From a virus (Duplodnaviria; Heunggongvirae; Uroviricota; Caudoviricetes), in the IMG/VR virus record IMGVR_UViG_648276668_000012: 25,312 nucleotides of DNA. One strand, given 5' to 3'. This document shows positions 1 through 25,312 of this stretch, in pieces; within the stretch, counting starts at the first letter, position 1; each line of letters opens with the position of its first letter. Under the pieces are notes generated by a model, which worked only from the letters and a program-made list of their open reading frames with translations, did not search any database and was not told the origin of the DNA. The position numbers and the translations under genes were made by a program.

Positions 1-1056
1 TTATTGCGGGGTAATGCCAACCGCTGCCGCCACTTTGTCGCCATTTGGTAACGTTGCCAGTGGATTGAAACGGAGCGCCGTTTCCAAATGATCCGGTGCC
101 AGATGCGCATAACGCATAGTCATTTTTATATCGTGGTGTCCGAGAATTTTTTGTAAGGCCAAGATGTTTCCACCCGACATCATGAAGTGCGCCGCAAACG
201 TATGGCGCAGAACGTGTGTCAGTTGACCGCGAGGGAGAACGATAGACGTTTTTTCCATCACGGATAAAAATTGAAAATAGCAGTCTGTGAAGAAATTGAA
301 CCCATCGAGCGCCATGATCTCTTCATAAAGCTCTTTACTGATAGGGATGCTTCTGTTTTTCTTCCCCTTCGTTCTCACAAAGGTGATTCGGTACTTGGTG
401 ACCTGTGAGCGGGTAAGATTGATTGCTTCTCGCCAACGTGCGCCTGTACTTAGACATATTTTTACCACCAGTGCCAGAATTGGGTTCTGACGTTTGCAGT
501 CAGACAGTAATTCGATAATCTGCTCATGTGTAAGCCATGCCATTTCCTTTTCTGCGATAGTGAATTTGCGCATCTTCTCTAATGGGTTTGGAAGTGTCCA
601 TTCACCCAGGCGGGAAAGTTCTCTGAAAACGCTGCTTAGATGGCTTTGCTCCAGGTTAACAGTAACTGGGCTTGCTCCTTTCTTCCATTTTTCACTGAAG
701 TAGATTTCACCAGTAAGGCGTTTATCGCGATAGTGAGCAAACATTTTTGAGGTGAGATCAGTTGCAAGGGGATTTCCCAAGGCGTCAACCATCAACAGCA
801 GCTTGTTGTAGACATGCTGTCCGGCAGTAAGAGATTTGCCATGTAATTTGAACCATAGCTCAACCATATCTTTCAGTGTCCGACGATCCACTGATTCGCC
901 CAGCCAGGGCTTTGCTTCTATTTCCCCCATGGTGTATCGCTCGAAGGCCAGTGCTTCGCCTTTGGTGGCGAATTGTTTACGCACACGGCGTCCGCTACGT
1001 CCGGCGGGGTAACATTCGCAAAGCCATTTCCCTGTGGTTAGTTTTCGTACTGCCAT
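1..1056 (-). CDS. int: Tyrosine site-specific integrase (P2/186 family)
   Basis: 351-aa ORF; C-terminal catalytic region with conserved tyrosine-recombinase residues (HxxR ... MTMRYAHLAP); GGAGGG RBS 8 nt upstream of the ATG; sits at the prophage edge next to the repressor module. Confidence 0.9.
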   Translation of the reverse strand: MAVRKLTTGKWLCECYPAGRSGRRVRKQFATKGEALAFERYTMGEIEAKPWLGESVDRRTLKDMVELWFKLHGKSLTAGQHVYNKLLLMVDALGNPLATDLTSKMFAHYRDKRLTGEIYFSEKWKKGASPVTVNLEQSHLSSVFRELSRLGEWTLPNPLEKMRKFTIAEKEMAWLTHEQIIELLSDCKRQNPILALVVKICLSTGARWREAINLTRSQVTKYRITFVRTKGKKNRSIPISKELYEEIMALDGFNFFTDCYFQFLSVMEKTSIVLPRGQLTHVLRHTFAAHFMMSGGNILALQKILGHHDIKMTMRYAHLAPDHLETALRFNPLATLPNGDKVAAAVGITPQ

Positions 1057-1134: not shown

Positions 1135-1506
1135 TCATAAGTACCGATATGATTGCGGGGCCGTTATGTTATCACCTAATGAACTTAGATGAAGTGGTTG
1201 GTCATAGATTTTTAGATTACCAATTTCTATAGCAAAGGCCTTTTCTTTGCTATGAAAATATGAGTCAAAAAATTGTTTACTGATACCCGCGTATTGGCTT
1301 GTTTTTTCCCATACAATACTCGGCTTGCCTTCTATAACATCTGCAATGTCAAATTCAGCAACAACTTTACCGACAGGCATTGTTGAATAAATAACCACAG
1401 ATTTTACATCCGGGTTTTTGAAAATACCTTTCCTGAATTCAAACTTCTTTGTTCCATTAAGAATTTTTTCAACAAATTCAGGTTTTATTGACAATAACAC
1501 TTTCAT
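1135..1506 (-). CDS. ASCH-domain (PUA-like fold) protein
   Basis: 123-aa ORF; N-terminal 'LSIKPEFVEKILNGTKKFEFRKG' matches the ASCH-domain signature by recall; AT-rich codon usage unlike the phage backbone. Confidence 0.6.
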   Translation of the reverse strand: MKVLLSIKPEFVEKILNGTKKFEFRKGIFKNPDVKSVVIYSTMPVGKVVAEFDIADVIEGKPSIVWEKTSQYAGISKQFFDSYFHSKEKAFAIEIGNLKIYDQPLHLSSLGDNITAPQSYRYL

Positions 1507-1711
1507 CTACAGCACCAAGTTTAATTATATCGTCAAATTGCTTATCGGTTAATTTAACAACACCCCAACGGTTTTTAGGATTCAAACCAATTTCTTCGAT
1601 TAGTTTAGCACGATTTATTCTTTTAGGTAAAGCTAGATTATATGTAAAACTAATAATGTAAGGGTATCTTTTTGTTTGATAGAATTTTTTTAATTCATTT
1701 TCAGAAAACAC
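1478..1711 (-). CDS. Hypothetical small protein (77 aa), overlaps the ASCH gene by 29 nt
   Basis: ORF with GTG start and no clear Shine-Dalgarno; different frame from the downstream ASCH ORF; could be a separate coupled gene or an artefact. Confidence 0.35.
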   Translation of the reverse strand: MFSENELKKFYQTKRYPYIISFTYNLALPKRINRAKLIEEIGLNPKNRWGVVKLTDKQFDDIIKLGAVDESVIVNKT

Positions 1712-1851
1712 ACTGTATCGTGCACAATACTGTATGAATTCATTTTCACTATGAAAAGAATCAATATATCTAATATCTTCAACTACACATAATGACGTTG
1801 CGACAGAACGATAGTATGCTCTGTTCTCTTCGTCACTTGTTCTGTAAACAA

Positions 1852-2553
1852 CTAATATGTCATGTTTTTTATTTTTGTTACATCATGCATTCTGCATATG
1901 TATATTTTTCTAATGCTGTTAGCATGAGATACATCCGTTATTATATCTGGAGATTCGGTGACGAGTTTTGAATCCGGAAAAAGTTTAGTATGAAATTTAG
2001 GGTATATTGATAATAGATATTTGCTCTCATTATTTTTATTGTTTATATATGGGTAATCAGAAAGAATATCTCCTGTGAGGTGATCTCTATTCATCTCTCT
2101 TACTAAGACATTTTCTATACCATTTGCGGTTTTTTTTGTGCCATGAAGAATGAATCCATAAAGTTTGAATAGTTTTATTAAATATTCATGTTTTTCAAAT
2201 ACAGTAACATAAATATCATTAACTTTTTCTTTTAAAGCATGGTCAAATATTTTTTTAAAAACGTTGTCCTCGTAATGTTTTTTTGTGTTGAACTTAAAAG
2301 TTCCAATTTTCAAATGCTTATCGTTAACGATTGATGGTGTAACATCTGTTATTGTACCGTGCTCAATTTTTAAATACATAAAACCATCAATGGTATTATC
2401 GTCATTATAAAGTACATATGCTTTTTCTTCTGGATTCAGGCTTTTTTTGTTAAACCATTCAATAAAACCGTGTTTATAGTCATTTTTTAATGAATCAAAG
2501 AATATATCATCAAAATTTACTTGACTGAATGGAATAAGCTTTAAATTTTCCAT
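1852..2553 (-). CDS. Hypothetical protein (233 aa), cargo island; possible acyl-transferase-like fold (weak)
   Basis: Uninterrupted 233-aa ORF, AT-rich, co-oriented with flanking genes; C-terminal segment 'EKHEYLIKLFKLYGFILHG' loosely resembles the GNAT motif B region, but no clear motif A. Confidence 0.5.
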   Translation of the reverse strand: MENLKLIPFSQVNFDDIFFDSLKNDYKHGFIEWFNKKSLNPEEKAYVLYNDDNTIDGFMYLKIEHGTITDVTPSIVNDKHLKIGTFKFNTKKHYEDNVFKKIFDHALKEKVNDIYVTVFEKHEYLIKLFKLYGFILHGTKKTANGIENVLVREMNRDHLTGDILSDYPYINNKNNESKYLLSIYPKFHTKLFPDSKLVTESPDIITDVSHANSIRKIYICRMHDVTKIKNMTY

Positions 2554-2580: not shown

Positions 2581-3651
2581 TTATCTTCTATAGGTCAAAA
2601 GGTGAATTAATATATATATTGCAATAGCTAGGATTGCTCCACATATATAATATGTGCCTGTCGGTATGAATTTAAGAATAAAAGCAAAGGCGGCACCATA
2701 TATCAAGTATGCGAAAATTTTACTGAATTTTGTTTTCGTGTTTTTAAACTTCACAACAACAGAGAAGTCATTTAGTCTTGCTTTTTTATCATTAACAATC
2801 TTCCAATGGTAAATCATAGGATCGTGATCACCAAATGAAATATCCTTATCGAAATATTTTGTCCATGTTTCAGACTCTAATATTCTACATCCTTTATAAC
2901 TTGAACCAGATGCTGAACATTCATCAACAATATCTCTAATGATAAACAAATGTGTTTTTAAAGGCGTACAAGCGGCGCTCGCCAGAGTTGTAGCGATTTC
3001 TGAAGGTAGGTTTCTTTGTTCATTGATCCTAAAGTCAATAATATCAGAACGCTCAATATTGCTTTTGAGAAAGAGATCTTTGGGATAAAATGTTTTTACT
3101 AAAATACCTATATCATCAATGTTGAGTTTAACGCGAAATCTCAAGTAATGTGGAGCGTCCTCTGAAGATAGGCAATCTTTTAGCTTGAAAACAATAAAAG
3201 TACCATTATGTATTTTAGTTACCTTAACTCTACGGTCAAGTTCACCACCACTAAAAGTTAGCTTTGTATTAACAACTAAATCACCTTTATTCGCGAGTAC
3301 TAATTTTAAATGTCTGACGTCTACAGTTTTGGTATTAATAAGATACTCATTAAAAACAGCCGTTACGAGATCTCGGCTTGACTCGAGATTTTCACTAAGA
3401 TCCGAAAAAAAACAGTTTTCTTTCTCAAATGGTAAAAATATGCATATTGCGCCATGATTTGCAATAGTATCGTCATCGGGTTTTTCAAACGTAATACCAA
3501 AATCTAAATAACCAAATTTATGAGCACTTAGATTCCAAAAGTTTATATGCAACTCATTAATAAAATTCTTGTGTTCAGGGTTATAGGTCGAGCTCGAATC
3601 ACTGCGATAATCCCTGCATCCCCAGACAGCAAAACTTTTTGACATAAACAT
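2581..3651 (-). CDS. Hypothetical protein (356 aa) with C-terminal double transmembrane anchor
   Basis: Long AT-rich ORF; last ~45 residues form two hydrophobic helices (IFAYLIYGAAFAFILKF ... YYICGAILAIAIYILIHLL); no recognisable catalytic motif. Confidence 0.55.
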   Translation of the reverse strand: MFMSKSFAVWGCRDYRSDSSSTYNPEHKNFINELHINFWNLSAHKFGYLDFGITFEKPDDDTIANHGAICIFLPFEKENCFFSDLSENLESSRDLVTAVFNEYLINTKTVDVRHLKLVLANKGDLVVNTKLTFSGGELDRRVKVTKIHNGTFIVFKLKDCLSSEDAPHYLRFRVKLNIDDIGILVKTFYPKDLFLKSNIERSDIIDFRINEQRNLPSEIATTLASAACTPLKTHLFIIRDIVDECSASGSSYKGCRILESETWTKYFDKDISFGDHDPMIYHWKIVNDKKARLNDFSVVVKFKNTKTKFSKIFAYLIYGAAFAFILKFIPTGTYYICGAILAIAIYILIHLLTYRR

Positions 3652-9469: not shown

Positions 9470-9562
9470 TTACGCTGGTTAACAATTCGTGCTCTTAATA
9501 ATACCAGGCATATCAGGCTGATGAGCGTAAAAAACGTTTTACATCAGTAAGATTATTATATA

Positions 9563-10213: not shown

Positions 10214-10639
10214 CTACTTAATTGAGTCCAGTAACAAGTTACAGTTACTCTCATTGTAGAGAGAACGAGCAATTAGTGTTACCTGCTTTCCATTCATTCC
10301 CGGCTTATCCCATAACACAGCTTCTTGCGACGCCACAAATTCAGCATAATCAATTATGCGTTGTTCGTGATCTGGTTCCTCATAGCCAAAGTATGAGAGC
10401 GCATCGTTGTAAGCGTGGTAAGCTGCTTTCTGTAATATCTTGATATCGGCTGTAGGTACTTGCTCCGTGTAGCTAGGATCTAATTGTGTGCTACTGCCAT
10501 AGAATGCACATGAAAGGTAAGATATTGATTTCTGTTGAGCTTTAGTTCCTTTCTCATAGTTTTTAGCTGTTACCGCCTGAACTGGGACGCTAACAAAGCT
10601 TGCAACCAGAATTAAAATTAATACGTAAAAGCTTTTCAT
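10214..10639 (-). CDS. Hypothetical secreted/periplasmic protein (141 aa) with N-terminal signal peptide
   Basis: N-terminus 'MKSFYVLILILVASFVSVPVQAVTA' is a typical Sec signal peptide; AT-rich; opposite orientation to flanking genes; at the P2 tin/old-equivalent position. Confidence 0.55.
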   Translation of the reverse strand: MKSFYVLILILVASFVSVPVQAVTAKNYEKGTKAQQKSISYLSCAFYGSSTQLDPSYTEQVPTADIKILQKAAYHAYNDALSYFGYEEPDHEQRIIDYAEFVASQEAVLWDKPGMNGKQVTLIARSLYNESNCNLLLDSIK

Positions 10640-11087: not shown

Positions 11088-11633
11088 ATGGATGCTATTA
11101 CTGGATTATTGGATTTTTTTAGAAAGATTCCAACGGCACTTCTTGTAGCTATTACATGTGGTTTAAGTTTGATCCTTTTTTTGCCAGAATCTTTAGCTTC
11201 TAAAGTTGCGGTTGATGGTTTCCGTAAAGAATATAGAAATTTCATAGGACCAGCATTTTTACTGGCTGTCTCTTTTTTAGTTGCAAGAGTATATCAGTTT
11301 TTTCATGACCTATATGGCGATAGACAAAGGCACAAAGTACGTATCTCTTATTTGGAGAAGCTAACTCCTGAGGAGAAGGGATACCTCTGGTCTTATATAA
11401 TTGATGGCGAAAACTCACTAATGTGTGGTCCTGAAGATGGTGTTATGGGGGGGTTGGTTGCTAAGCGCATAACCTATAGAGCTGCAAACGTGGGCAGTAT
11501 GATTGACGGATTCGCTTTCAATTTGCAGCCGTGGGCTCGCGAGCATTTACAGAACAACACTCATTTATTAGAAGGAGCGGTCGGTAGGGCAATGACACCG
11601 GGTGAGAAACTAGGATTCAGGCGTAGATTTTAA
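11088..11633 (+). CDS. Hypothetical inner-membrane protein (181 aa, two N-terminal TM helices); possibly SieB-like superinfection exclusion
   Basis: Two hydrophobic helices (IPTALLVAITCGLSLILFL; IGPAFLLAVSFLVARVYQFF) followed by a soluble domain; lies between cos and portal gene Q, where P2 has no gene; lower GC than backbone. Confidence 0.5.
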   Translation: MDAITGLLDFFRKIPTALLVAITCGLSLILFLPESLASKVAVDGFRKEYRNFIGPAFLLAVSFLVARVYQFFHDLYGDRQRHKVRISYLEKLTPEEKGYLWSYIIDGENSLMCGPEDGVMGGLVAKRITYRAANVGSMIDGFAFNLQPWAREHLQNNTHLLEGAVGRAMTPGEKLGFRRRF

Positions 11634-17183: not shown

Positions 17184-17277
17184 CAGAACGTGCCCCGCGC
17201 ACGGGCGGCACGGGGTGGCGAAAGGCACAGCCACATCAAAACTCCGTCCACCGCCCTCTATTTCAGGAGAAAGCAGC

Positions 17278-20482: not shown

Positions 20483-21427
20483 TTAAATTTCGGATTTGGT
20501 TTCAAGGTTTCTCAATGTATTCGGTATCAATGTTTCACTGAATCCAGAAAGCGCACAAATCACATAAATGGAGAATGAGATGTCACTACTATTATTCATA
20601 AACCCGAAGATAATATTCCCCTTGAGCATAAAGTATACAAGTACGCCAGCCATCATTGAAAGGAGTATTCTCTCCGCACCATAGAAGAAATAAGTTTTCT
20701 TTTTTAGTTCTCTGTCTGTATGGAGGCTTTTTATTTTTAGGGATACAGAAATAAACCCCCCGATGGAAGCAAAGGAAGCGGCGTATAACACCACTGGAAT
20801 AAAGTGATTAGCTTTTATGAAATTAGAATCTCTAGCCAAATATGTTATCAATGCAAGGATGATGAATATCAATGCTAAAGTTATGGCTCCTGATTGATAT
20901 AAATTCCTTCCAAGCATTGTGTTTTCATAATCGTTTTTAATGTCTCTATTTATTGCGGCGAAGTTATTTTTGTTTATATCATTTTTTCCAAGTATTGTTG
21001 CTGACATAACTGTTGCTGCTCTTTTTTTATAAATAGAAGAGCAGTTGTATTTGTAGCAATGTGAAATAAACTCATCAAAGTGCTCTTTTGAAGCATGATA
21101 TCTATCAATCTTACTGTCATCCTCCTCAATGATTGAGTCTATGAAAACGAGCATAGACTCATGAGGCGGAAGATTGGCTACTTCATAAATGACATATTCA
21201 TCCCCACGTGAATAAATTTTACTTATGGTGTTTCCACCCAAATCTGTTCCACCAACGACGTATTTGCCAATTCTTTCTTGCTGTTTTTTTTTGTATTCAT
21301 CCCTCTCCTTCTTTGTAGGTGGGGGATTGATGGGATCATTCATTGCATCCATGGGGACAATATTATCTTGCTCAGCTGCTTCTGGGGTATTGGTGTTAGT
21401 TGTCATTTTTTGTGTAGTTAATGTCAC
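20483..21427 (-). CDS. Hypothetical cargo protein (314 aa): N-terminal soluble domain plus four C-terminal TM helices
   Basis: AT-rich ORF on the strand opposite to the tail operon, between S and V; hydrophobic helices at roughly residues 170-300; own terminator. Confidence 0.6.
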   Translation of the reverse strand: MTLTTQKMTTNTNTPEAAEQDNIVPMDAMNDPINPPPTKKERDEYKKKQQERIGKYVVGGTDLGGNTISKIYSRGDEYVIYEVANLPPHESMLVFIDSIIEEDDSKIDRYHASKEHFDEFISHCYKYNCSSIYKKRAATVMSATILGKNDINKNNFAAINRDIKNDYENTMLGRNLYQSGAITLALIFIILALITYLARDSNFIKANHFIPVVLYAASFASIGGFISVSLKIKSLHTDRELKKKTYFFYGAERILLSMMAGVLVYFMLKGNIIFGFMNNSSDISFSIYVICALSGFSETLIPNTLRNLETKSEI

Positions 21428-21474: not shown

Positions 21475-22053
21475 ATGAACGCACAACTGACTGAAATCAT
21501 GCGCCTTATCACCAATCTGATCCGCACAGGTGTAGTCACCGAAGTGGACCGGGAGAACTGGCTTTGCCGGGTGAAAACGGGCGACCTTGAAACCAACTGG
21601 ATCAGCTGGCTGACCCTGCGTGCCGGGAATGCCCGCACATGGTGGAAACCATCGGAAGGTGAGCAGGTGGTGCTGCTGAGTCTGGGCGGCAATCTGGAGA
21701 CCGCCTTTGCGCTGCCCGCTGTCTATTCGAATCAGTTCGCACCACCGTCGACGTCGGCGGACGCCTGCGTGACAGAACATCCTGACGGTGGCTGGTTTGA
21801 ATACGAACCCGCCACCGGGCGCTGGTATGTCAGGGGCATCAAATCAATGGTCATTGAGGCCGCTGACAACATCACCATGAAAACCAGTGAGTTTGTACTG
21901 GAGGCTGACCGCACGCGCATTAACAGCGAAGTGGTGATCAATGGTGGCGTTAACCAGGGCGGCGGAGCGATGAGTTCTAACGGGATCGTGGTTGATGCGC
22001 ATCAGCATACTGGCGTCCTGAAAGGCGGCGATACAACCGGAGGCCCGGTATGA
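21475..22053 (+). CDS. V: Baseplate spike / assembly protein V (P2 gpV family)
   Basis: Strong similarity by recall to P2 gpV (RTG.V.E.D......CRV.TG...T.W..WLT.RAG..RTWW.PS.GEQV; GG.MS.SSNG). Confidence 0.88.
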   Translation: MNAQLTEIMRLITNLIRTGVVTEVDRENWLCRVKTGDLETNWISWLTLRAGNARTWWKPSEGEQVVLLSLGGNLETAFALPAVYSNQFAPPSTSADACVTEHPDGGWFEYEPATGRWYVRGIKSMVIEAADNITMKTSEFVLEADRTRINSEVVINGGVNQGGGAMSSNGIVVDAHQHTGVLKGGDTTGGPV

Positions 22054-22409
22054 CGCTTTATAGCGGGATGAACAATACCAGCGGCAAAGTCATTACTGAT
22101 ATTGATCATCTGCGCCAGTCGGTGCGGGACATTCTGCTGACACCGCAGGGTAGCCGTATTGCCCGCCGGGAATATGGTTCCCTCCTGTCGGTTTTAATAG
22201 ATCAGCCACAAAATCCGGCATTACGCCTGCAGGTCATGTCGGCAGTGTATGTGGCGCTGAGTCGCTGGGAGCCACGGCTGACGCTGGATTCCATCACCAT
22301 CAACAGCAACTTTGACGGTTCTATGGTGGTGGAGCTGACCGGGCGGCGGAATAACGGTGTGCCTGTGTCCCTTTCCGTATCAACAGGAGCAGAGAATGGC
22401 AGTGATTGA
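22050..22409 (+). CDS. W: Baseplate protein W (gp25-like lysozyme fold)
   Basis: 119 aa; ATGA overlap with V; conserved position. Confidence 0.85.
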   Translation: MTLYSGMNNTSGKVITDIDHLRQSVRDILLTPQGSRIARREYGSLLSVLIDQPQNPALRLQVMSAVYVALSRWEPRLTLDSITINSNFDGSMVVELTGRRNNGVPVSLSVSTGAENGSD

Positions 22410-23304
22410 CCTTTCGCAGTTGCCTGCACCGCAGATTGTGGATGTGCCGGACTTTGAGACGCTGCTTGCCGAACGCAAGGCAGAATTTGTGGCGCTTCAT
22501 CCGAAAGATGAGCAGGAAGCCGTGATCCGAACGCTGGAACTGGAATCTGAACCCGTCACTAAATTGTTGCAGGAGAACGCTTACCGTGAGTTGCTTCTGC
22601 GCCAGCGCATTAACGAAGCCGCGCAGGCGGTGATGGTGGCTTACGCGATGGGCGGCGATCTTGACCAGCTCGCTGCCAACTACAACGTGACACGCCTGAC
22701 GGTGACGCCTGCTGATAATGATGCTGTGCCGCCCGTTGCAGCTGTGATGGAAAGCGATGAAGCGTTACGCCTGCGTGTGCCTGCAGCCTTTGAAGGGCTT
22801 TCTGTTGCGGGGCCAACTGCAGCTTATGAATTTCATGCCCGAAGCGCCGACGGTCGGGTGGCGGATGCCAGTGCAACCAGCCCGGCACCTGCAGAGGTGG
22901 TGCTGACTGTCCTTAGCCGCGAAGGCGATGGAACTGCAGAAAAAGACCTGCTGGACGTGGTGGAAAAAGCTCTGAACAGTGAGAACGTCCGCCCGGTGGC
23001 TGACCGGCTGACGGTTCGCAGCGCAGAAATCATCCCGTATCGCGTGGAAGCCACCATTTTTCTCTATCCGGGACCGGAAGCAGAGCCGGTAATGGCAGCG
23101 GCAAAAGCCAGCCTGCAGAAGTACATCGCCAGTCAGACGCGTCTTGGTCGGGATATTCGCCGTAGCGCCATCTTTGCCGCCCTGCATGTTGAGGGTGTGC
23201 AGCGTGTGGAGCTGGCTTCTCCTCTGGCGGATGTGGTCCTGAACAAAACACAGGCGGCATCATGTACGCAGTGGAGCGTAACCAACGGAGGAACGGATGA
23301 ATAG
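22396..23304 (+). CDS. J: Baseplate assembly protein J (P2 gpJ family)
   Basis: ATG at 22396 with GGAG RBS; N-terminus 'IDLSQLPAP..V...DFE..LAERKA' and C-terminal 'LGRDIR.SAI.AALHVEGVQRVELA.PLADVVLN.TQA' match P2 gpJ. Confidence 0.88.
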   Translation: MAVIDLSQLPAPQIVDVPDFETLLAERKAEFVALHPKDEQEAVIRTLELESEPVTKLLQENAYRELLLRQRINEAAQAVMVAYAMGGDLDQLAANYNVTRLTVTPADNDAVPPVAAVMESDEALRLRVPAAFEGLSVAGPTAAYEFHARSADGRVADASATSPAPAEVVLTVLSREGDGTAEKDLLDVVEKALNSENVRPVADRLTVRSAEIIPYRVEATIFLYPGPEAEPVMAAAKASLQKYIASQTRLGRDIRRSAIFAALHVEGVQRVELASPLADVVLNKTQAASCTQWSVTNGGTDE

Positions 23305-23902
23305 TCTGCTGCCACCGGGTTCAACTTCACTGGAGCGCCGACTGGCGCAAACCTGTAGCGGGATTTCTGATCTGCAGGTGCCGCTGCGTGACTTGTGGAA
23401 TCCGGCTACCTGTCCGGTCAGTTTCCTGCCTTATCTCGCCTGGGCGTTCTCTGTGGATCGCTGGGACGAGGGCTGGACAGAAAGCGTCAAACGCCAGGTA
23501 GTGAAGGATGCTTTTTATATTCATCAGCATAAAGGAACCACCAGTGCCGTGCGGCGGGTGGTGGAACCGTTCGGATTCCTGATCCGCATTATTGAGTGGT
23601 GGCAGACCGGAGAAACACCGGGCACGTTTCGCCTGGATATCGGCGTGCAGGACCAGGGCATCACTGAAGATACCTATCTGGAACTTGAGCGGCTGATAAG
23701 CGATGCCAAACCATGTAGCCGTCACATGAGCGGCATGTCCATCAATCTGCAGACCAGCGGTCCGCATTGGGTGGGGGCTGCCAGCTATCTTGGTGAAGAA
23801 ATCACGATCTATCCGTATATCAACGAAACAATTATTTCCGGCGGCACCGCGCATGAAGGTGGGGCGGTCCATGTTATTGACACAATGAGAGTGAATCCAT
23901 GA
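23297..23902 (+). CDS. I: Tail/baseplate protein I (P2 gpI family)
   Basis: Similarity to P2 gpI (LWNP.TCP...LP.LAWAFSVDRWDE.W; GTFRLDIGV; DAKP.SRH). Confidence 0.85.
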   Translation: MNSLLPPGSTSLERRLAQTCSGISDLQVPLRDLWNPATCPVSFLPYLAWAFSVDRWDEGWTESVKRQVVKDAFYIHQHKGTTSAVRRVVEPFGFLIRIIEWWQTGETPGTFRLDIGVQDQGITEDTYLELERLISDAKPCSRHMSGMSINLQTSGPHWVGAASYLGEEITIYPYINETIISGGTAHEGGAVHVIDTMRVNP

Positions 23903-25312
23903 GCACAAAATTTTATACCCTGCTGACGGATATTGGCGCGGCGAAACTTGCCAGCGCCGCCGCGCTCGGTGTGCCTTTAAAAAATTACCCATATGGCGGT
24001 CGGCGATGGCGGCGGAACATTGCCAACGCCGGACGCAAAGCAGACAGCATTGGTAAATGAGAAACGCCGGGCTGCGCTGAATATGCTCTATATCGACCCG
24101 CAGAACAGCAGCCAGATTATTGCTGAACAGGTGATCCCTGAAAACGAGGGCGGTTGGTGGATACGTGAAGTGGGCCTGTTTGATGAGTCCGGGGCATTGA
24201 TTGCCGTGGGCAACTGCCCGGAAAGCTATAAGCCGCAACTGGCTGAAGGCAGCGGGCGCACCCAGACCGTGCGCATGGTGCTGATTACCAGCAGCACGGA
24301 CAATATCACCCTGAAAATCGACCCTGCCGTCGTGCTGGCAACCCGCAAGTATGTGGATGACAAGGTACTGGAGCTGAAGGTGTACGTGGATGATAAGATG
24401 GCAAAACATCTTGCCGCACCGGACCCGCATTCACAGTATGCACCCAAAGAAAGCCCGACATTGACCGGAACACCCAAAGCGCCAACGCCAGCGGAGGGGA
24501 ATAACACCACGCAGATTGCGACCACCGCGTTTGTTCAGGCGGCACTGACGGCCCTTATTAATGGTGCGCCAGCCACACTGGATACGCTGAAAGAAATTGC
24601 CGCTGCCATTAATAATGACCCGAAATTCAGTACCACCATTAACAATGCGCTGGCACTAAAAGCACCGCTGTCGAGTCCGGCACTCACCGGAACGCCAACA
24701 GCCCCCACGGCGGCGCAGTCGGTCAACAATACACAGATTGCCACTACGGCTTTTGTGAAATCGGCGATTGCGGCAATGGTGGGTTCTGCACCTGCGGCAC
24801 TGGATACACTGAATGAACTGGCTGCGGCGCTGGGGAATGACCCGAACTTTGCCACGACAATGCTTAATGCGCTGGCAGGCAAACAACCGCTGGACAATAC
24901 GTTGACTAATTTGAGTGGAAAAGATGTTGCTGGTCTTCTCGCATACCTTGGTTTGGGAGAAGGTGCTCCAGCTATTGGCGTTCCGTTCTTCTGGCCCTCC
25001 GCGGCAATGCCAAATACTGTAATCGACAGCTGGTCCGGTATGGTGTTTTTGAAGTTCAACGGGGCGAAATTTTCTGCCTCTGATTACCCTGTGCTGGCGA
25101 AAGTGTTTCCTGCGCTGGTATTACCTGAAGCCCGCGGTGATTTCATTCGTATCTGGGATGACGGGCGAGGTGTAGACGGTGGTCGCATGTTGTTAAGCGC
25201 ACAGGACTTTGCTCAGCAGCGTATAACAGGGGATTTCATGGGGGGAGCTATGGGTAGCTCTGGCTCAATAAAAGCGGGTGCACTTGTTAATTCTTACACC
25301 AATTACGGTGCT
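23899..25312 (+). pseudogene. H: Tail fibre protein H (P2 gpH family), frameshifted at an A6 run; 3' end lies beyond the window
   Basis: Frame from the ATG at 23899 gives 'MSTKFYTLLTDIGAAKLASAAALGVPLK' then stops at 24058-24060; the +1 frame from 23984 continues with 'ITHMAVGDGGG...' (matching the P2 H N-terminal region) and stays open to 25312; the frames join at the A-run 23979-23984. Confidence 0.75.
24461..24906 (+). repeat. Imperfect tandem duplication (two units of about 222 bp / 74 aa) inside the tail-fibre gene
   Basis: Protein repeats 'LTGTPKAPTPAEGNNTTQIATTAFVQAAL...DTLKEIAAAINNDPKFSTTINNALA' and 'LTGTPTAPTAAQSVNNTQIATTAFVKSAI...DTLNELAAALGNDPNFATTMLNALA'. Confidence 0.7.

Follow-up and report, generated by a model that had tools for sequence, protein, structure and literature searches.

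An apparent frameshift in tail-fibre gene H of a P2-like Escherichia coli prophage as a probable homopolymer miscall

Tail-fibre gene H of a P2-like (Peduoviridae) prophage appears to be broken by a frameshift at a short run of adenines, and the question raised by this locus is whether the break belongs to the prophage, as a lesion or as a functional tract, or to the assembly in which it was read. The window, by which we mean the whole stretch of 25,312 nucleotides analysed here, extends from an integrase gene at its left end (1–1056, minus strand) through the late genes of the prophage.

Reading frame and run length of gene H

The baseplate genes V, W, J and I, assigned from Pfam matches and the called-gene tables, occupy the open reading frames from 21475 to 23902, and with H directly behind them the late-operon order V-W-J-I-H is found. 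Gene I (baseplate or tail protein I; 23297–23902, plus strand), placed in the V-W-J-I order by Pfam, is intact, and a 100% identical protein is encoded in at least 65 public-collection blocks; the stop codon of gene I is overlapped by the start codon of H (ATGA). As written, the 5' fragment of H (23899–24060, plus strand) is comprised of 28 correct codons, 25 out-of-frame codons and a stop. The initial annotation had described a run of six A's at 23979–23984, an H frame that ends after 53 codons and a +1 frame that continues, all of which were borne out; the sequence holds exactly six A's, the frame from the ATG at 23899 runs into a stop at 24058–24060, and the +1 frame reads ...KITHMAVGDGGGTLPTPDAKQ... 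with no stop before the last base of the window. It was also right in recognising a P2 gpH-type tail fibre and in placing the break.

The rest of H is read in the +1 frame (23993–25312, plus strand); it opens with an internal ATG and runs off the window end. The shift cuts through PF12571, the N-terminal domain of tail-collar fibres; by Pfam, the 53-aa product corresponds to profile positions 1–28 and the open reading frame from ATG 23993 to positions 32–150, whilst H repaired to A5 gives a full match (1–150 of 150, E 1.6e-65, 220 bits). Rescue by re-initiation at ATG 23993 was considered and rejected, because no Shine-Dalgarno sequence is found upstream of this codon in GCCTTTAAAAAATTACCCATATG and the product would be missing profile positions 1–31 of the attachment domain.

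To find which run length gives a continuous gene, H was rebuilt in silico with 5, 6, 7 and 8 A's at 23979–23984. The A5 version reads PLKITHMAVGDGGG and is continuous as ...GVPLKITHMAVGDGGG..., the A6 version, which is the window as it stands, stops after 53 codons, the A7 version gives PLKKLPIWRSAM... followed by a stop, and the A8 version contains ...PLKKITHMAVGDGGG.... It had been proposed that a single extra A (A7) would yield a continuous PLKKITHMAVGDGGG, which is wrong; that peptide needs A8, and the frame is restored by A5 or A8 only.

Relatives were collected with a pattern permitting A5 to A8, which matched in at least 120 contigs of IMG/VR and 2 genomes of species representatives, and the run was counted in 126 loci. 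This comparison of the A-run across related prophages, which the initial annotation had suggested, gave A5 in 126 of 126 loci; since every relative carries A5, the length to be expected of an intact gene on re-sequencing is A5 and not the A7 named there. The scan of species representatives gave two matches only (Citrobacter sp. FP75 and Escherichia sp. MOD1-EC7003), both A5, which are too few for a census. Neither +1 allele, T3A6 or T4A5, came up in dedicated scans of IMG/VR, against at least 120 A5 contigs. Amongst complete E. coli genomes, a 76-nt probe across the H site was identical in 0 of 952 matching records, and all 30 matches listed span 75 nt and are therefore A5. The sequence CT(A/T)AAAAATTACC, which is A5 and accompanied by an intact H, is found in phage Cartapus, E. 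coli 08-00022, Klebsiella phage KP12 and E. coli LF82. As all relatives have A5, the window therefore carries a one-base insertion (one A extra) and not a deletion; judged from these sequences, the ancestral state of the run is A5.

In its surroundings the gene bears a close similarity to the P2 gpH-type fibres of Cartapus (CARTA_19), KP12 (KP12_309) and LF82 (WP_000104761.1), which likewise come after V-W-J-I with a start overlapping the stop of I. The DNA is 96–98% identical to that of these relatives near the H start, and the full PF12571 domain is found in the repaired protein of the window. However, the relatives are all intact, whereas the window has an extra A at codons 28–29 and consists of 53 codons and a separate open reading frame.

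Homopolymer changes elsewhere in the source assembly

Amongst 153 billion gene positions, the exact 53-aa H product was found on one contig only, GL884207.1 (E. coli GCA_000176615.2, 1.25 Mb), of which the window is bases 672152–697463. This scaffold is a gapped draft assembly; a gap of 692 N opens two bases past the window end, within the invertible tail-fibre region. Near-identical relatives were fetched with the integrase and gene I proteins of the window and represent independent assemblies of the same prophage at the same site, adjoining rcdA. The stretches compared were L136 and L142 from the source, L138 and L143 from GCA_016760575.1, L145 from GCA_020300365.1, L146 from GCA_029820345.1 and L147 from SRR31884592.

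The H run was A5 in L143, L145, L146 and L147, and the A6 allele is private to one assembly. L145 and L146 match the source with 0 substitutions over 11.65 kb whose end lies in H, the only difference being one indel, the extra A, and over 11.67 kb L143 and L147 differ from the source by 1 substitution each and the same single indel. In the left part of the prophage (11 kb) the source differs from L138 by 0 substitutions and 5 one-base deletions, in the adjoining host DNA (10 kb) by 2 substitutions and 0 indels, and past the window end (7.1 kb) it differs from L143 by 0 substitutions and 1 indel (A7 to A6). Against the near-identical assemblies, approximately 30 kb of the source prophage shows seven one-base homopolymer changes versus 0–1 ordinary substitutions. 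This comparison turned up no nonsense mutation, and every indel fell within a homopolymer.

The last approximately 370 nt of the window, the 3' end of H (about 24945–25312), lie inside an invertible segment. L142 11649–12017 corresponds to L143 13495–13127 in reverse orientation, the invertible stretch spans L142 11649–13081 and a resolvase/invertase gene is located downstream; besides ordinary substitutions, one base differs at each end of the inverted segment. The assembler probably met both orientations here, hence an N gap within the segment. Caudo_TAP genes, for tail-fibre assembly, are found 3' of H in L143, and the same place in the source is the N gap.

Of the six further homopolymer changes, four fall in a 359-aa gene similar to the candidate defence gene PDC-M11A. 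At 1865–1870 (minus strand) the window has T6 where relatives have T7, a frameshift of the same class as that at the H site; at 2250–2261 (minus strand) it has T7A5 in place of T8A6, with one base lost per run, and at 2278–2284 (minus strand), in the same gene, T7 in place of T8. The three losses at 2250–2284 put 9 codons out of frame, after which the frame is regained, but the fourth, at 1865–1870, breaks the gene. The fifth change, A6 in place of A7 at 9529–9534, is intergenic, downstream of replication gene A; the run is A7 in 7 of 7 more distant E. coli relatives and in the near-identical L138. The sixth lies about 2.2 kb past the window end, at L142 14177–14183, where A6 in place of A7 splits the tail-sheath gene FI into 112 and 278 aa. 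When L136 is set against L138, the five deletions in the left part sit in runs of T7, A8, T6, A8 and A7.

Seven E. coli relatives of 3.4–5% divergence agree against the window at the H site, 2257 and 9529, and 6 of the 7 do so at 1871 and 2285, L133 being locally too divergent for base-for-base alignment. The further six changes are private to the source against these 6–7 E. coli relatives; they depend on run length and are far more numerous than substitutions. In counts that were scripted, except that the H site was entered by hand, changes in the source affected 0 of 351 runs with a reference length of 4, 1 of 145 of length 5 (the H site), 1 of 44 of length 6, 3 of 10 of length 7 and 2 of 5 of length 8. 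Three genes are apparently broken, each by homopolymer changes alone: the PDC-M11A-like gene, H and FI. The lengths of the remaining called genes equal those in the near-identical assemblies, except for a different start call for CI. A C4 run at 17193–17196 was considered as an extra private change and excluded; the window differs here from the seven more distant relatives too, but the run is C5 in 22 of 43 relatives and identical in the near-identical L143. This run is intergenic, between terminase gene M and head-completion gene L, and represents a natural polymorphism that is not private to the source.

Cargo genes and variable slots

Between the integrase and CI repressor genes lies a candidate defence pair, PDC-M11B/PDC-M11A. 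Within 1135–2553 (minus strand), an ASCH-domain gene (1135–1506) matches the PADLOC candidate PDC-M11B (E 4e-49), and the 359-aa gene, labelled 'N-acetyltransferase' in relatives, matches the candidate PDC-M11A, with E 1e-134 on the intact copy in L138; in the window the latter gene is broken by the four homopolymer losses. No match to the PDC-M11A region was found in phage records. Beside the pair is a gene of 354–356 aa (2581–3651) which belongs to no known family.

A variable slot between a DinI-like gene and portal gene Q holds a protein of the SieB superinfection-exclusion family (11088–11633, plus strand; PF14163, E 2e-22) and a 141-aa gene (10214–10639, minus strand) of no family; the cargo of this slot differs in relatives, in which SEFIR-domain, DUF4145, HIRAN-domain, GTP pyrophosphokinase and DUF6236 genes are found. 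Between tail gene S and baseplate gene V there is an AT-rich gene of 307–314 aa with a hydrophobic C-terminal half (20483–21427, minus strand), for which no Pfam or PADLOC match was obtained. Most E. coli relatives lack it, with about 70 bp in its place, and some gene occupies this position in E. coli strain C2. In this same strain (L132, NZ_CP010117.1; 6705–9984), the genes for DNA adenine methylase and replication endonuclease carry a frameshift annotation, with indels relative to the window of 10 nt (window 6998) and 1 nt (window 8153), which provides another example of an assembly-specific break in this prophage family.

Miscall, decay or functional tract

We regard it as very probable that the H frameshift arose in the draft GCA_000176615.2 through faulty base calling or consensus building, as one of a family of homopolymer miscalls. 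A homopolymer-prone sequencing chemistry, flow-based or other, would have added one A to the A5 run of H, and the other six run-length changes of the assembly would have arisen by the same miscalling. That the chemistry was the cause is something we infer; the accession style and the N-gapped scaffold fit an assembly drafted around 2010. Homopolymer miscalling has the signature seen here, namely private changes that occur in mononucleotide runs only, depend on run length and come without the substitutions which true divergence would have brought. The window is also alike to the miscalls of draft assemblies known from pyrosequencing, semiconductor and long-read consensus data, both in its private one-base run changes and in its N gaps. 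In a survey of homopolymeric tracts, lengths which followed the clade were authentic and sporadic outliers which did not were likely sequencing errors (PMC4746626). Several observations count against this reading. In H a base was gained, and in a short run (A5), whilst at the other six sites one was lost, from runs of 6–8; runs of at least 7 were changed in 0 of 4 cases in the 10-kb host flank versus 5 of 12 in the prophage, numbers too few for significance; the A7 to A6 allele of the sheath gene may be real in some strains; and real slippage at the H tract is possible, given two other public contigs with a +1 allele.

It is unlikely that the insertion is instead a genuine and very recent mutation in a decaying prophage, possibly of a mismatch-repair-deficient lineage, in which the fibre, the sheath and a cargo gene were lost by homopolymer slippage. 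Replication slippage at mononucleotide runs is the main natural origin of one-base indels, and all seven changes are in the prophage with none in the 10-kb host flank, matching what relaxed selection would predict. An identical truncated sheath fragment of 112 aa is moreover found on 69 contigs, of which one measures 5.2 Mb, and the H tract shows independent +1 alleles in two further data sets, ERR10498185 and ERR4405724. However, decay has to account for seven indels against 0–1 ordinary substitutions in approximately 30 kb, an excess not expected even of a mismatch-repair mutant; in E. coli mutation-accumulation studies such mutants show more substitutions than indels genome-wide. None of the seven changes is common to any relative, the A6 allele of H is present in 0 of 952 and the A6 sheath allele on the same background in 0 of 714 complete E. 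coli genomes, and the frame-restoring losses at 2250–2284 would need three independent events in one gene. An inherited lesion was not found, and the nonsense mutations and non-repeat indels that accompany a pseudogene are likewise missing. Named sources of the 112-aa sheath fragment include E. coli 1827-70, with a variant in Shigella boydii 4444-74, and the sheath A-run looks like a recurrent site of miscalling or slippage. Should the lesion be true, it would mean that one E. coli strain has a P2-like prophage unable to build tail fibres and sheath, which is common and unremarkable for prophages.

That the A-run is a functional site, at which a programmed frameshift or transcriptional slippage yields full-length H from the A6 template or a tail-fibre switch is phase variable, appears extremely improbable. 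The tract is alike to programmed sites such as the A AAA AAG of dnaX, the G/GT-type E/E' chaperone site of P2 and the A-runs of insertion sequences in being an A-rich run, here inside a tail gene, at which two frames would have to be joined; the T3A6 tract holds a slippery heptamer of the U UUA AAA type, a hairpin is possible 11 nt downstream, and three independent +1 alleles at the tract are present in public data. Unlike those sites, the out-of-frame arrangement is missing from the relatives of the window, the direction of the shift is unsuited to the heptamer and no significant downstream structure is found. The single-frame A5 arrangement in 126 of 126 relatives largely refutes this reading, and the frame would be regained by a shift of +1 or -2, but the heptamer favours -1, which leads to a stop. 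The fold downstream (23985–24075) has an energy of -31.5 kcal/mol (z = -1.5), but 10 of 200 shuffled sequences fold equally well; neither a conserved two-frame arrangement nor a motif for the required shift with a stimulatory structure is present. Appreciable slippage or phase variation occurs in tracts of about 8–9 or more, and A5/A6 is below this length. The tract is 5 nt in all relatives, and each frameshifted allele is a singleton on one contig, the OFF alleles coming from three unrelated data sets. Two of these, each on a single short contig, give a 53-aa product in the same wrong frame: L149 (ERR10498185; 2548–2709) has T4A5 (+1) at the H tract, and L150 (ERR4405724; 176–337) has an extra base on a CTG-AAAA background, the tract sequences being CCTTTTAAAAATT and CTGAAAAATT, respectively. 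A comparison of the 53-aa product with 5.8 billion clustered proteins found short H starts broken at scattered points, nearly all on single contigs, as sporadic errors or mutations would give. It is very unlikely, too, that T3A5 at codons 27–29 of H is a real slippage hot spot, at which an OFF switch occurs in a minority of cells or lineages and the three +1 alleles are genuine; were this true, the alleles of the scaffold, ERR10498185 and ERR4405724 would be genuine tail-fibre OFF variants of a widespread E. coli P2-like prophage.

Of the three readings offered by the initial annotation, a sequencing or assembly error is strongly favoured, whereas an inactivating mutation and a slippage-prone tract are poorly supported. 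Its title, which made the break a property of the prophage, does not stand; the same draft holds six more private one-base homopolymer changes and almost no substitutions. With the homopolymer miscall as the preferred explanation, the organism itself most likely does not have the H frameshift; the comparison with relatives suggests that in the actual prophage the run is most likely A5 and H an intact gene for a P2 gpH-type tail fibre. The scaffold should be considered with caution, because three genes in one 33-kb prophage look broken through homopolymer length changes alone, and GL884207.1 is thus unsuitable for calling prophage genes defective.
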